Shown here in pieces: positions 10,930-16,683 of a stretch of 24,219 nucleotides of DNA. The stretch's first letter is position 1. Every line of letters starts with the position of its first letter. A program made the position numbers and the translations under genes. The notes under the pieces are model-generated. The model ran no database searches and was not told where the DNA came from. It saw nothing but the letters and a program-made list of their open reading frames with translations. This DNA is from a virus (Duplodnaviria > Caudoviricetes): positions 1 to 24,219 of IMG/VR virus record IMGVR_UViG_3300010403_000051. One strand, given 5' to 3'.

Positions 10930-10984
10930 TTTCTGTATACGCGCGGCAGAAACGTGAAAGTAGCAGTAAAACCAGTGATATACG
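10930..10984 (+). promoter_or_regulatory. Further operator-like sites and weak repressor promoter
   Basis: Inverted repeat TTTCTG-N11-CAGAAA (10930-10952); AGTGATA half-site (10974-10980) is the reverse complement of TATCACT at 10902; TG-a-TATACG lies 8 nt before the repressor ATG. Confidence 0.4.
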
Positions 10985-10992
10985 GGTATCCC

Positions 10993-11541
10993 ATGACCGC
11001 CTCCGACGCGACGGCCAAAGAGCGAGTCAGCCAACGGATCAAGGAACGCCTCGACGAGTTAGGCATGAACGCCCGAGCCTTCGCGCGGAAGATGGGCTAC
11101 AAGGACGGCTGGATCAACGCGATCAAGGATGGGCGTAATGCCCTGCAGTTAGAAGACTTGGACCGTGCGGCGTTTCACCTGCGCACGACCGCCGGCGACC
11201 TGATACGGCGGGGCGACGAGCTATACGATTTACGGCCGTCAGAGGCGCGCCTCGTTCGCGCACTGCGCCTGTTGCCCCCGGTGATTCAGGATTACCTGGT
11301 CACCCTCACCGAGTATTTGGTCGGCGTGCTACCCGAGGAGGTCGGACTTTTAGAGGAGTTCCGGGACCTGGGAGACGACCAGCAGGCGCAGATCCGCCGG
11401 TGGGTCCATGTGATGCACATTGCCGGTCCGCGTGGAGCGCACGCGCCAGAAGCGCCAAACCTTGACGATCTGTCGAGCCTAGTCCGCGGAAGTGGGCCAA
11501 CAACTCACGCTCCAGCACGCGGGCGGAAGCGTCCGAAGTAA
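10993..11541 (+). CDS. Phage immunity repressor, XRE/CI-like HTH, no S24 peptidase domain
   Basis: RIKERLDELGMNARAFARKMGYKDGWINAIKDGRNAL HTH; divergent from cro. C-terminus has two helical repeats. Alternative GTG start at 10954. Confidence 0.85.
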   Translation: MTASDATAKERVSQRIKERLDELGMNARAFARKMGYKDGWINAIKDGRNALQLEDLDRAAFHLRTTAGDLIRRGDELYDLRPSEARLVRALRLLPPVIQDYLVTLTEYLVGVLPEEVGLLEEFRDLGDDQQAQIRRWVHVMHIAGPRGAHAPEAPNLDDLSSLVRGSGPTTHAPARGRKRPK

Positions 11542-12459: not shown

Positions 12460-12705
12460 TCACCAGGTCGCCAGGATCTGCGCGCCGCCGGTCACCGACC
12501 CGCCCCAGGTCTTCCCCACCCAGGCCTGGACGGTCCACGTCTCGTTCAGTTTGGCAACGACGGCGGCGTTGACGCCGGCATCGGTCGCCACGCCCACGAT
12601 CGCCCCGGACTTGCCCTGCGGTAAGGCGGCCACGGCTCGCTGAATCGACGCCGCGATGTCGGGGATGAGATGGTCGGGCGGCTGGTTGAAGACGACGCCG
12701 GTCAT
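12460..12705 (-). CDS. 81-aa protein resembling a YadA-type trimeric autotransporter membrane anchor
   Basis: ATGA-coupled to the endolysin; helix-AALPQGK followed by four amphipathic strands and a terminal Trp. Confidence 0.6.
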   Translation of the reverse strand: MTGVVFNQPPDHLIPDIAASIQRAVAALPQGKSGAIVGVATDAGVNAAVVAKLNETWTVQAWVGKTWGGSVTGGAQILATW

Positions 12706-13250
12706 GTAGCATCCGCGGCGGTGCCGGCCTGCACGCGGCTCCACGCTTCCGCGTAGTGGTGATTCCAGGCGGTCCGCAGTTGCTGCCGCTGCTCTTCGGT
12801 CCCTCGGGTATAGGCCCCTGGTTTCCAAATGGCGAGGTATTGCCGCCACGCCAAGTCGGGATTGTCCGGACCCGCCAGCGCCGGGGGAAACGTCCACAGG
12901 TTCAGCCGCGCCAGGCAGTACGCCAACGTATCGTTGTGCGTCATCGCTTCCCAGAGTTCCAGCGTCTGTCTCGCGATCGTCGCCTTCGGCACCCGGTAGC
13001 AGAGCGCATCGACCACGCTGTCCGCCGCGGCTTTCGTGCGCGCGTGCTCGAGCACTTCGCGCACGGCCACCGGCTCGAGCTGCCAGAAACTATGTGCCGG
13101 TCCGCCGTGGTACTGCTTCCGGGCGGTGAAGCCGTCGCCTTCATGCAAGCCGATGGCGAGGAGCATCGCTGTCGCGCGATCCGACGCCATCGCCGGCGGG
13201 AGGAGCGCGTAGGCCGCCGGCACCGTGAAGCGGTGGATGTGATCGATCAT
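12702..13250 (-). CDS. Putative endolysin, lysozyme-like fold
   Basis: MLLAIGLHE...RKQ..GGPAHSFWQLE...NDTLAYCLARLNLW...AWRQYLAIWKPG pattern; located after the tail genes. Confidence 0.75.
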   Translation of the reverse strand: MIDHIHRFTVPAAYALLPPAMASDRATAMLLAIGLHEGDGFTARKQYHGGPAHSFWQLEPVAVREVLEHARTKAAADSVVDALCYRVPKATIARQTLELWEAMTHNDTLAYCLARLNLWTFPPALAGPDNPDLAWRQYLAIWKPGAYTRGTEEQRQQLRTAWNHHYAEAWSRVQAGTAADAT

Positions 13251-14437
13251 GCCGGGAGCACCAACAGATACACCTGCCCGTCGACCATGTAAGTCGCGAC
13301 GCGCCCGCTCGGATCGAGATTCGCTTTGACGCGGGCGTCGTAGTCGTTGCTCCGCACGCCGTGGTCAATGAGCGGCGTCTCACCGGACCCGTCGAGCGCC
13401 ACGAGGCTCAGGTGCGTCTCGCCGCTATGGAGACACCGCCCGCCGCGGATCGACACGTAGCCCATGTTCCACGTCGGGAACAAATCCCGCCGCCGCCCGG
13501 GCGTGAGCGGCTGAGTGAGATCCCAGAGGACGCACGCGCCGTGGATGTTGTCTTCGCCGACCAGCAGATGCGGCCCGCAGTCGGAATGCCCCACCGCGCC
13601 GTCGGCGTCGCGCAGGATCTGCGTGTGCCGGGTGTCCAGGTTGATGACGCGGTTGTCGTCGTCTTCCTTGATGACCAGCCACCCGCCGTCAGGTGTCACC
13701 TGGGATTCATCGAGTTCGCCTTGCGCTGGGAAGTATTCCTGGCGTCCCTTGCGAAAGACGACCGTGCCGAGCGCGGGATAGGCCCCGTCGCTGACGACTC
13801 GTTTCACCGTCGCCGAGTGCGTCTGTCCGTCGTCGGAACTGTGCGCTTGCCAGAGGATGCAGCCGGGATGCGTGTCCGCGAGATCGAACACGACGCGCGC
13901 TTCGTTGGTGAAGGGACTCACGCGCATCAGCCGCGTCCCGTCGAGAAGATAGATCCAGCCGTTGGCGTCCCAGTACCACCCTTCGGTCGTGCCGACAAAG
14001 CCGAGCATCGGGCCGAGCCGTTCTACCGCGCCGGTCGTCAGGTCGACCTTGAAGAAGCGCGGCAAGCCGTCGACGTGCCCCGCGAAGACGTAGGCGGCAT
14101 TGCCGTGGATCCAGGCGTTGCTCCAGTAGCTGTACATGCGAGGGACGAAGTCCCCATCGCTGGCATCGGTGACGCGGATGACTCGCGGCGTGGCTGACGA
14201 GGCGGGCCCGGGGGCCGGCGGCTCAGGCACCGGGGCCGGTGGCCGTGGCTCCACCGGCGGCAGCACCACGGGCGGCCGGCTCGCCCCGAGCCCAGCTTCA
14301 TAGGAGAACTTGTCCCACACCGGCGTCATCTGCCCGGGCACGATCCAGTTGTCGTACACGACGTCATTCCCGTCACCTTCCCCTTCGGTGGTGATGGCGT
14401 GCGTGTAGTGCCCGTCCGGCGTGGTGAAGAGCGGCAT
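13247..14437 (-). CDS. Hypothetical protein with Pro-rich linker and predicted beta-propeller, 396 aa
   Basis: Repeated blade-like motifs (HSSDDGQT, VTPDGGWLVI, LDPSGRVATY); PPVEPRPPAPVPEPPAP linker. Confidence 0.7.
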   Translation of the reverse strand: MPLFTTPDGHYTHAITTEGEGDGNDVVYDNWIVPGQMTPVWDKFSYEAGLGASRPPVVLPPVEPRPPAPVPEPPAPGPASSATPRVIRVTDASDGDFVPRMYSYWSNAWIHGNAAYVFAGHVDGLPRFFKVDLTTGAVERLGPMLGFVGTTEGWYWDANGWIYLLDGTRLMRVSPFTNEARVVFDLADTHPGCILWQAHSSDDGQTHSATVKRVVSDGAYPALGTVVFRKGRQEYFPAQGELDESQVTPDGGWLVIKEDDDNRVINLDTRHTQILRDADGAVGHSDCGPHLLVGEDNIHGACVLWDLTQPLTPGRRRDLFPTWNMGYVSIRGGRCLHSGETHLSLVALDGSGETPLIDHGVRSNDYDARVKANLDPSGRVATYMVDGQVYLLVLPA

Positions 14438-14440
14438 CGG

Positions 14441-14944
14441 TCACGAATCCTTCGGCCGCTCGCCGTCGGCATTCTTGTCATGAATCGACTGGATGGTGTC
14501 AATGACTTGATTGAGGTCTTCCGTCCGGACCGCCGGGACCGTAATCGTTTCCTTCCGGTCCGCACTCGCCTCGAGCACGCGTGTGGCCGTGAGGATGTTG
14601 ACGAGCGTGGTCACGGTCTTTTCGAGCCCCTCGTTCCGGGCCATCAATTGGTTCACTTCGTCGGTCAGTTTCGTCAGATGGCCATTGGTCTGCGCGGCGA
14701 TCTTGTCGCTCTGCGTCGAGATGTCCTGCGTCGCCATGCGGACGGCTTCCACCTTGGCGGCGGTGTCGCTCGCGTGCGTGGCGGCCGTCTCCGCCTTCAT
14801 CGCGGCAGCGTCCGCGCTGCTCGCGGCCTGATCCACTTTCCGGCCATTGCTCTGCCCCTGCCGCAAGGCACCCCACGCCACGATCGTTGGCGGCAAGGCC
14901 GTCAAGGCTGCCACCACAATGGCCTGAATCGTGGCGTCCGTCAC
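14441..14944 (-). CDS. Membrane-anchored coiled-coil protein (holin or i-spanin candidate)
   Basis: N-terminal hydrophobic segment IQAIVVAALTALPPTIVAWGAL, then Ala-rich heptad helices; first gene of the lysis region. Confidence 0.6.
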   Translation of the reverse strand: MTDATIQAIVVAALTALPPTIVAWGALRQGQSNGRKVDQAASSADAAAMKAETAATHASDTAAKVEAVRMATQDISTQSDKIAAQTNGHLTKLTDEVNQLMARNEGLEKTVTTLVNILTATRVLEASADRKETITVPAVRTEDLNQVIDTIQSIHDKNADGERPKDS

Positions 14945-15348: not shown

Positions 15349-16683
15349 TCAGCAGTGCCACATCCCGACCAGCCCCGAGCCCAGCTCGCCGCCGTTGTCC
15401 CCGTACCACGTTGTCGTCCCGACGGCGCCGCTGTTCTCAAGCGCCGCGTAGTAGTGCCGCCCGACCGCGGGTGTCTTGTGCAACCGCGAGATCGCCTGCA
15501 GGAGCTGTGTCGCCGGACTCGCGGCGGACTTGGCGACCTGATTCCCGACCTGCGTCGAGCCGGTGCCGGTCGGCGCCGAAACCGTGTCTTCCCCGATCCC
15601 GCAATAGAGATTCACATTCCCCGAGGAATTCGAGACATAGGTAAACAGCATCACATCGACGCTGCCGACGATGTAGCCGTTCATGATCTCGACTTGGTTC
15701 GCGGTGGAGTTGTTCGCCTGCCGCCACGTCGCCGTCGTGTACGTCCACGAGTCGGTCGTGTCGATCCGTCGCAGATGCCGGGGCGCCTGGTGGTAGTAGT
15801 TGAAGAGATACCGCTTCGCCGCTGAATCCTCAGTCGTGTTCGTGCCGCTCGCATAGAGCGAGCCCACATAGCGCCGCGTCGTCGCGCCGGACTTCACGAG
15901 CACGCCGTCTTGCAGCACCAACGCCGTCGCCCGTGTCGTGTCGTTGGTCCAGACCAGGACTTCGAGGGTCGGTGTGCCGCTGCTGTCGTAGACGAAGACG
16001 TCGTAGGGCTTGCCGCTCGTGAGCGTCAGGGCCAGCGACTGCTGCGCGGCTTGCCGCACGTTCCACGCGGCGCCGTCGTAGAGCGCGATGGCGTTGCCCT
16101 TGAACGGCGTGAGGTAGAGCGTGCCGGCGCCCGTGACGTCCGAGTCGGTCACCGGGACGTTGGTGGTCAGCGTCAGGCGGAACCCGTTGGTCGCCGGGTC
16201 TACGGTCCCGCCACCCGCCGCGGCCGCGCTGCTGCGCGCGAGTTCGTACCACGTTGTCCCGTCCCGGTAGAGCATCAGCCGGTGGTCGGCATCGCTCATC
16301 GCGAAGTCGCCGCCCTTAAGATGGATGTTCCCGGTGCCGTGCTTCACCGTCACGACGCGCGCGACGTTTTCTGCTTTCAGGATCAGGAATCGCGCTTCCC
16401 GTCCGCCGCTGTCCAGCGTGATCGTGGCGAGATTGTCGGAGGCGGCGTTGGCTTCCGTGTCGATGCTGTAGACGTTCTTCCCGGCGGTGAGCGTGACGGC
16501 ATCGGAGGCGATCGTGAGTTCGGTGGACGCCGCGAAACTCAGGGCGCCGTTGTCGTCAATCGCATCGAGGACGTTGTCGACGTCGTCATAGATCGCGTCG
16601 ATCATCGCCTTGTCGACGGGCGTGCCGTCGCCCACGCCGGTGTCGTCGACAAGCGTGTTGTAGTAGGTGCGACTGAGCGCCAT
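15349..16683 (-). CDS. Tail fibre / minor tail protein, 444 aa
   Basis: Thr/Ala/Gly-rich beta-structured modules (IDTEANAASDNLATI; RLTLTTNVPVTDSDVTGAGTLY); follows the tail-tip gene with TAATG coupling. Confidence 0.75.
   Translation of the reverse strand: MALSRTYYNTLVDDTGVGDGTPVDKAMIDAIYDDVDNVLDAIDDNGALSFAASTELTIASDAVTLTAGKNVYSIDTEANAASDNLATITLDSGGREARFLILKAENVARVVTVKHGTGNIHLKGGDFAMSDADHRLMLYRDGTTWYELARSSAAAAGGGTVDPATNGFRLTLTTNVPVTDSDVTGAGTLYLTPFKGNAIALYDGAAWNVRQAAQQSLALTLTSGKPYDVFVYDSSGTPTLEVLVWTNDTTRATALVLQDGVLVKSGATTRRYVGSLYASGTNTTEDSAAKRYLFNYYHQAPRHLRRIDTTDSWTYTTATWRQANNSTANQVEIMNGYIVGSVDVMLFTYVSNSSGNVNLYCGIGEDTVSAPTGTGSTQVGNQVAKSAASPATQLLQAISRLHKTPAVGRHYYAALENSGAVGTTTWYGDNGGELGSGLVGMWHC

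Follow-up and report, generated by a model that had tools for sequence, protein, structure and literature searches.

The window analysed here is a 24,219-nucleotide stretch of viral DNA (Duplodnaviria; Caudoviricetes), comprising positions 1 to 24,219 of IMG/VR record IMGVR_UViG_3300010403_000051. Its lysis region encodes an 81-aa protein that belongs to a genuine phage family, which has no annotation and is clearly, though not always, associated with lysis cassettes. The gene is coupled to a probable endolysin gene by an ATGA overlap, its product has no signal peptide, and genes of the family are frequently linked to endolysins of five classes. The protein is predicted to be a subunit of an oligomeric membrane beta-barrel, for which we infer an outer-membrane location and a role in lysis. 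In the reading that we favour, tentatively and as one falling just short of probable, it is a beta-barrel that is released by the holin and takes the place of spanins in breaching the outer membrane.

Gene organisation of the lysis region

The late operon of the window runs from the tail genes through the genes at 14441-14944 and 13247-14437 and the probable endolysin gene (12702-13250) to the barrel gene (Table 1). A preliminary description of this DNA had given the coordinates, the length of 81 aa and the coding nature of the last ORF correctly, but not its strand, which is the minus one; the plus-strand frame at 12460..12705 is broken by a stop. The sequence quoted there comprised residues 17-81 only, and the missing first 16 residues carry the family motif. 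The reported overlap with the stop of the upstream gene was borne out, the ATG of the barrel gene and the upstream TGA together forming ATGA. The codon model of the window gives the reading frame of the gene a score of +24.7, and the remaining frames of that strand -25.4 and -27.9; its GC3 is 0.91. An in-frame GTG start would make the gene 64 codons longer, and because this extension scores -25.6, the resulting 145-aa form was ruled out and the ATG start is preferred.

Table 1. Features of the window around the barrel gene.
Feature	Position	Strand	Basis and remarks
cI-like repressor	10954..11541	plus	weak HTH matches, Pfam and PHROG repressor families; temperate-phage context
Lipoprotein with PKD domain, 233 aa	11754..12455	plus	lipobox scan; PKD E 1.4e-10
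Barrel-subunit gene (predicted), 81 aa	12705..12460	minus	ORF position and translation; last gene of late operon
Probable endolysin, 182 aa	12702..13250	minus	phrog_3108 E 2e-24 (listed as unknown function); lysozyme/transglycosylase-like
Accessory protein, 396 aa, Pro-rich linker	13247..14437	minus	weak Pfam matches: oligogalacturonate lyase E 0.015, WD40 E 0.12
Single N-terminal hydrophobic segment and coiled-coil-like body, 167 aa	14441..14944	minus	candidate holin or i-spanin-like
Tail-fibre-like gene	15349..16683	minus	Phage_depo_C E 4.6e-5; upstream of lysis cassette, same late operon

The gene at 12702-13250 probably encodes a transglycosylase-like endolysin. Relatives of the protein are annotated as lysozyme, its Atlas neighbours are lysozyme and SLT clusters, Glu37 is invariant, and the best profile match in the PDB is endolysin gp144 (E 0.025). 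In LIT1-like phages, the annotation of phrog_3108 relatives varies between lysozyme and major capsid protein.

The product of 13247-14437 probably adopts a beta-propeller fold, and homologues were found in five of the 27 other barrel-gene loci (L130, L140, L143, L144 and L145). These propeller-like proteins share 29-60% identity, carry swappable N-terminal lectin-like domains and a Pro-rich linker, and are encoded in lysis regions. The 14441-14944 protein, which had been proposed as a possible partner of the barrel protein, matched the Rz-like family phrog_312 at E 0.0026, near an unrelated match at E 0.0061. Since tblastn revealed no homologue in the 27 other barrel-gene loci, it is not a fixed partner. 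Pfam and PHROG profiles identified no holin in the window.

The PKD lipoprotein gene is convergent with the barrel gene, lies on the repressor strand and ends four bases from the barrel-gene stop. It is probably a lysogeny gene rather than an o-spanin gene, the latter function being rejected on account of the opposite strand and the length of the product. Genes for PKD-domain proteins or lipoproteins recur on the opposite strand just downstream of the cassette in L131, L400 and L425 (L425:13329-14189), and are candidates for lysogenic surface or superinfection-exclusion genes.

As with the spanins lambda Rz/Rz1 and T1 gp11, the barrel gene of the window stands directly after the endolysin gene, and its product would likewise act in the presumed final step of lysis (PMC6139136). 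The earlier proposal that the gene occupies the spanin slot was borne out by Proteobacteria phages with the same endolysin family, in three of four of which the next gene, at the position of the barrel gene, is Rz-like with an overlapping lipoprotein ORF. The lipobox scan works, since it recovered these Rz/Rz1 lipoprotein ORFs. In agreement with the earlier remark that the cassette has no o-spanin, its relaxed version picked up nothing along the entire minus strand of the window, which has no short lipoprotein gene of the o-spanin type on either strand. The strict scan of 34 barrel-gene loci returned one same-strand lipoprotein, 4.2 kb off, to which the relaxed scan adds a 69-aa candidate in L138. 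Wider flanks of three Vicinamibacteria prophages contain same-strand lipoproteins of 311, 312 and about 178 aa, larger than the control ORFs of 66-78 aa. Because of these three lipoproteins and the L138 candidate, the exclusion of lipoproteins is not clean. Loci with phrog_3108 in Gammaproteobacteria are too distant from P0002 for a spanin-linkage test (12 of 14 unmatched). In a single case, the Vicinamibacterales prophage L453, there is no barrel gene within 1.47 kb downstream of the endolysin; the phrog_3108 endolysin is followed there by one ORF (L453:841-1626) with an apparently holin-like N-terminus and a lipoprotein-like C-terminal part.

Unlike spanins, the barrel protein has no lipobox, transmembrane helix or periplasmic coiled coil, and it could not bridge and fuse both membranes by the spanin mechanism. 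The absence of a signal peptide and a lipobox, noted in the preliminary description, holds for the full 81 residues, which contain no Cys at all; no Cys is conserved in the family, and the sole helix is amphipathic with charged positions.

A family of small phage proteins

A scan of 1.84 billion representatives at the 50%-identity level yielded 228 family proteins at E<=0.001; three long proteins among the 150 matches listed (P0086, P0101 and P0106) were dropped as unrelated repeat proteins. The profile search returned 46 proteins with lengths of 66-102 aa, of which 34 were new. Viral, genome and metagenome contigs were also scanned by pattern, and filtering with the profile left 24 distinct members, that of the window included. 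Most pattern-scan loci were chance matches, the profile confirming one of 120 genome loci and 18 of 120 metagenome loci, and L397 was rejected as a member, being located inside a long host ORF.

Members of the family are 66-110 aa long (median 91 aa in 155 sequences) and comprise one helix, four strands and a terminal Trp or Phe, which is the C-terminal residue in 125 of the 155. No convincing signal peptide was found in these 155 sequences, the six mildly hydrophobic N-terminal windows not being signal-like. The family has its own motifs, GKxW and an N-terminal GVxFxxPP in which G3, V4, F6, P9 and P10 are conserved. Of the AALPQ-like motif described earlier, the L/I/V and P positions are indeed conserved (P in 152 of 189 sequences), but Q occurs in only 10 of 189. 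Position -3 is often K, G or A and not aromatic, and the median net charge of the family is 0.

Pfam contains no family matching the 81-aa protein at E<=1, and no match was found in PHROG, NCBIfam or the cultured phage records. Sequence searches of the PDB with the protein (P0001) and with A1 gave chance matches only, and in the Atlas the protein falls into a neighbourhood of unnamed viral clusters. Among the papers listed in literature searches, no title or abstract opening described the family, and no paper was found that joins Acidobacteria, prophage and spanin.

The domain also occurs in fused forms (L427:8055-8657, L428:8015-8614, P0054, P0140 and P0069), with a signal-peptide-like segment and a nuclease (phrog_452) or DUF5658 downstream, and DUF1353 or a GH19 fragment upstream. 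A free terminal Trp is not always present, because in L427, L428 and P0054 the domain continues into a hydrophobic segment and another domain.

Linkage to endolysins and probable hosts

Gene neighbourhoods were counted in 28 loci, many of them with short flanks; three loci of less than 700 bases, two extra copies from a single genome and loci nearly identical to the window had been set aside. An endolysin lies at most 4 kb away in 15 of the 28, and in 13 of the 20 loci with at least 4 kb upstream, against a chance rate of 20% (p 1.5e-5 for loci that are not independent, two of the lysozymes being 95% identical). The endolysins of the 15 loci belong to GH108 (four), M15 (four), T4-type lysozyme (three), phrog_3108 (three) and a TIGR02594-like class (one). 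The neighbourhood survey suggested by the preliminary description supports the linkage, but not as a universal one, seven of the 20 well-flanked loci showing no endolysin. Among these seven are copies between terminase and portal genes (L142), after a DNA methylase gene (L324) and at the end of an exonuclease-like ORF (L348).

Several other genes accompany the barrel gene. Phage_holin_10 genes are present in the same cassettes in three loci (L134, L137 and L145). In six of the 28 loci an alpha/beta-hydrolase gene is the immediate upstream neighbour or is separated from the barrel gene by a single short ORF, the Pfam Abhydrolase domain being encoded between the endolysin and barrel genes in L132, L280, L390, L425 (L425:10678-11274), L427 (L427:8629-9303) and L428. 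Such hydrolase genes in phages of a probably diderm host recall mycobacteriophage LysB. A papain-like peptidase gene (phrog_16701, Peptidase_C1) adjoins or lies near the barrel gene in L130, L131 and L137. In the holin position of three Vicinamibacteria prophages there are proteins with an N-terminal hydrophobic segment and a PAS domain (L427:10982-11563, L428:10943-11554 and L429:12574-13218); the ORF L453:3-434 looks similar, and L145:6381-6926 is a PAS ORF within the cassette. A sensor-bearing holin or antiholin would be unusual. In G356, three near-identical copies of the cassette (L391, L398 and L400) are located amid insertion-sequence genes, and in L400 the match contains a stop and the ORF as called has only 50 aa.

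The hosts are likely Vicinamibacteria (Acidobacteriota), to which the prophage copies point. Matches were found in seven of 401 genomes of the class of a Vicinamibacteria-labelled genome, six of them real, and the four examined loci from this class are prophages with tail and lysis genes. The class of a Gemmatimonadales genome gave no match in 301 genomes; two matches in 301 genomes of the Terriglobia class, partial and inside frames of 571 and 682 aa, were provisionally judged spurious. One copy is located on a phage-like contig in an Alphaproteobacteria-labelled assembly.

Predicted fold and comparison with trimeric autotransporter anchors

AlphaFold2, supplied with 138 sequences, predicts a helix at residues 11-26 and strands at 34-41, 44-53, 56-64 and 71-80 (pLDDT 89.7). 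The helix, spanning about residues 11-28, is amphipathic. Column statistics on 189 sequences define two faces of the sheet. The odd face, which is hydrophobic, is bordered by Trp57 and Trp81 on one side and by Trp67 and the conserved Lys65 on the opposite rim; the even face carries conserved Gly34, Gly64 and Gly74, Asn46 and Lys/Arg52. The strongest couplings of the helix (I21-V50, L28-V50 and I21-L78) reach the even face, the preference being modest (mean 1.65 vs 1.25), and W62-G74 forms a cross-strand pair on this helix-contacting face.

Co-variation in 188 sequences revealed the three hairpins and, in addition, an antiparallel diagonal between strands 1 and 4 at i+j of about 114-115, with pairs such as T41-G73, V37-I77 and V39-Q76. 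Its mean z is 0.92; the hairpins reach 0.74-0.89, and non-neighbour pairs of strands 0.47 and 0.11. The register was identical in 30 of 30 subsamples, and the diagonal was seen again with a second alignment and in each subfamily (0.79 at 115; 0.65 at 116); none of 40 within-subfamily shuffles reached the signal, and the within-block permutation p is only 0.03. Every strand is thus paired on both edges, so the sheet closes, and as four strands cannot close round a helix, the co-variation points to a ring of several subunits. The barrel-subunit anatomy proposed in the preliminary description is supported in this respect by the predicted helix and four strands, the division of the faces and the pairing of strands 1 and 4.

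The AlphaFold2 monomer had no Foldseek match at E<=0.001 in the PDB and viral sets. In the VIA wide fold search its matches were soluble helix-plus-meander folds only, with a best Z of 4.2, none at Z of 5 or above and no autotransporter among the 50 best rows.

The protein shares with YadA_anchor domains (PF03895; Hia, YadA and AtaA) the order of a helix, a short LP linker, four sequential antiparallel strands and a terminal aromatic residue. As in those anchors, strand 4 is predicted to pair with strand 1 of the next subunit (i+j 114-116). In hydropathy (2.23 vs 2.20) and in the share of charged residues (2% each) the odd face closely resembles the outer face of a set of 13 YadA anchors; this set was obtained from 16 sequences by removing L412, which is not an anchor, and L405 and L406, near copies of L404. 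Strands 2-4 align without gaps to the L413 anchor. The hhalign probability was 3% with five anchors and 40-50% with 13; the score of 24.4 exceeded those of the reversed profile (9.7) and of 60 parity-keeping shuffles (at most 19.3), and the pairwise P was 2-3e-4, which would not be significant at library-wide scale. Six of ten Atlas structure rows are YadA_anchor clusters with TM 0.61-0.64, all below the bar of the tool. The likeness to YadA anchors appears real but is weak.

Differences concern both the architecture and the interior. Unlike YadA anchors, the family has neither signal peptide nor passenger, its loop between strands 1 and 2 is shorter, the aromatic residue at -3 is missing, and the GVxFxxPP and GKxW motifs are its own. 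The mean residue volume is 122 cubic angstroms on the inner face, against 95 in YadA anchors, and 131 against 115 in the helix, where 19% of residues are charged compared with 4%; the G/A/S fraction of the lumen face is 0.40 vs 0.70. In trimeric autotransporters the lumen residues are described as all small (PMC3297439). The 12-stranded YadA-type trimer of the preliminary description is accordingly doubtful, since an inner face and three helices that are bulkier and more charged would make it too crowded. A lumen that is bulkier and charged hints at a water-filled pore built of more than three subunits.

The comparison with Pfam proposed earlier gave no support for membership in YadA_anchor, and the AlphaFold2 model gave no trimeric-autotransporter match; the likeness to anchors is weak but non-random. 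YadA_anchor was absent from the best 25 of the 39 Pfam families matched by 138 members, the remaining 14 ranking below a single-member match at E 0.12. No longer, passenger-bearing relative was found among 8000 scored candidates, which is a weak test. With signal peptide, passenger and small lumen residues missing, the family should not be filed as a YadA anchor; it has an anchor-like build and is not demonstrable as a YadA_anchor member.

Proposed role of the barrel protein

In the favoured reading, the barrel protein would be made late, wait in the cytoplasm and reach the periplasm through the holin lesion together with the endolysin. It may then insert into the outer membrane unaided, or via BAM by its terminal Trp. 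Subunits are predicted to join antiparallel, strand 4 to strand 1 of the next subunit, with the hydrophobic face and its rims of Trp57/Trp81 and Trp67 toward the lipid and the helix lining the inside. A pore wider than that of a trimer would weaken the outer membrane once the wall is cut, while being far too small for virion passage. The mechanism is plausible because of two precedents: pores were formed in liposomes by a trimeric-autotransporter barrel synthesised cell-free (PMC12963341), and in phiKT, a phage without spanins, the cytosol-made protein gp28 disrupts the outer membrane (10.1101/515445). Against it, the fused forms with a downstream hydrophobic segment and the copies outside lysis cassettes are left unexplained, and the hydrophobic sheet would need to stay unaggregated in the cytoplasm, for which the model offers no explanation. 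The full proposal, that Vicinamibacteria phages use a stand-alone, signal-less relative of the anchors, released through the holin lesion and self-assembled into a wider-than-trimer pore, in place of spanins across five unrelated endolysin classes, is slightly less probable than the core of the idea.

The disruptin phiKT gp28 resembles the barrel protein as a small cytosol-made protein of a spanin-less cassette with a proposed action on the outer membrane (10.1101/515445). Disruptins are short cationic amphipathic helical peptides, gp28 having 56 aa, whereas the barrel family is mostly beta, with four strands and a neutral median net charge, and is predicted to form an oligomeric barrel. By language-model features the nearest named clusters are insect attacin and gloverin (0.88 and 0.87, below the bar of 0.9), antimicrobial proteins that act on the outer membrane.

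It is unlikely that the protein is instead a soluble oligomer whose linkage to lysis genes is incidental and whose role would be lipid binding or that of a late accessory or virion component. One example would be two four-stranded sheets that form an eight-stranded barrel with a hydrophobic core and the helices on its exterior. Such an assembly would agree with the strongly amphipathic helix, 37-57% charged at positions 18, 19, 22 and 23 as if solvent-exposed, with the many conserved small residues of the hydrophobic face (A35, A47 and A61), with the exclusively soluble fold matches of the monomer and with the several copies outside lysis cassettes, and ring closure fits it too. However, it is on the face in contact with the helix that the conserved glycines and the W62-G74 pair are located, and glycines with an aromatic-Gly cross-strand pair are the pattern expected in a barrel interior. 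The Trp residues at both rims, the outer-face hydropathy equal to that of YadA anchors and the profile likeness exceeding shuffles also argue for the membrane barrel.

Less likely again is an action at the inner membrane, which the beta-barrel pore would enter from the cytoplasmic side to serve as a holin-like factor or to time lysis. A protein with no signal peptide would meet the inner membrane first, the window has no profile-matched holin, the hydrophobic segment fused to the domain in L427, L428 and P0054 would tether it there, and a related type of barrel is described as inserting into plain phospholipid liposomes (PMC12963341). The Phage_holin_10 genes in the same cassettes, the Rz/Rz1 position of the barrel gene in related cassettes and the terminal Trp/Phe, which resembles an outer-membrane signal, speak against this reading.

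Marginally more improbable still is a supporting outer-membrane barrel, either a dock or conduit for the co-encoded alpha/beta hydrolase, which would attack membrane lipids, or a means of blocking phage receptors on cells undergoing lysis. Besides the six upstream hydrolase genes, variable envelope enzymes are encoded nearby, the propeller-like protein in the window and five loci and the papain-like peptidase in three. However, neither the window nor the majority of loci yielded the hydrolase, which makes the barrel gene the more constant of the two.

Very improbable is a true trimeric-autotransporter anchor, deprived of its passenger and still forming a 12-stranded trimer with three helices in the lumen. 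The shared order of elements, the ungapped alignment to L413 and the Atlas structure rows are set against the larger and more charged interior, where true anchors are described as having only small residues, the lack of a Pfam match, the weak test that revealed no passenger-bearing relative, and the occurrence of YadA_anchor in only one of 151 genomes of the likely host class.

About 15% of phages are reported to have no spanin gene, and in one coliphage a cationic peptide was shown to fill this gap (10.1101/515445). The hundreds of small predicted barrel proteins in lysis cassettes represent a new candidate for a spanin substitute, which is directly testable by the existing lambda RzRz1 complementation assay. 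The barrel protein is also a possible minimal nanopore scaffold, and its gene a possible marker for little-studied acidobacterial phages. If the proposed role is true, the family would provide a natural barrel of the outer-membrane type that reaches its membrane without Sec, and this would bear on barrel assembly and on the origin of autotransporter anchors.
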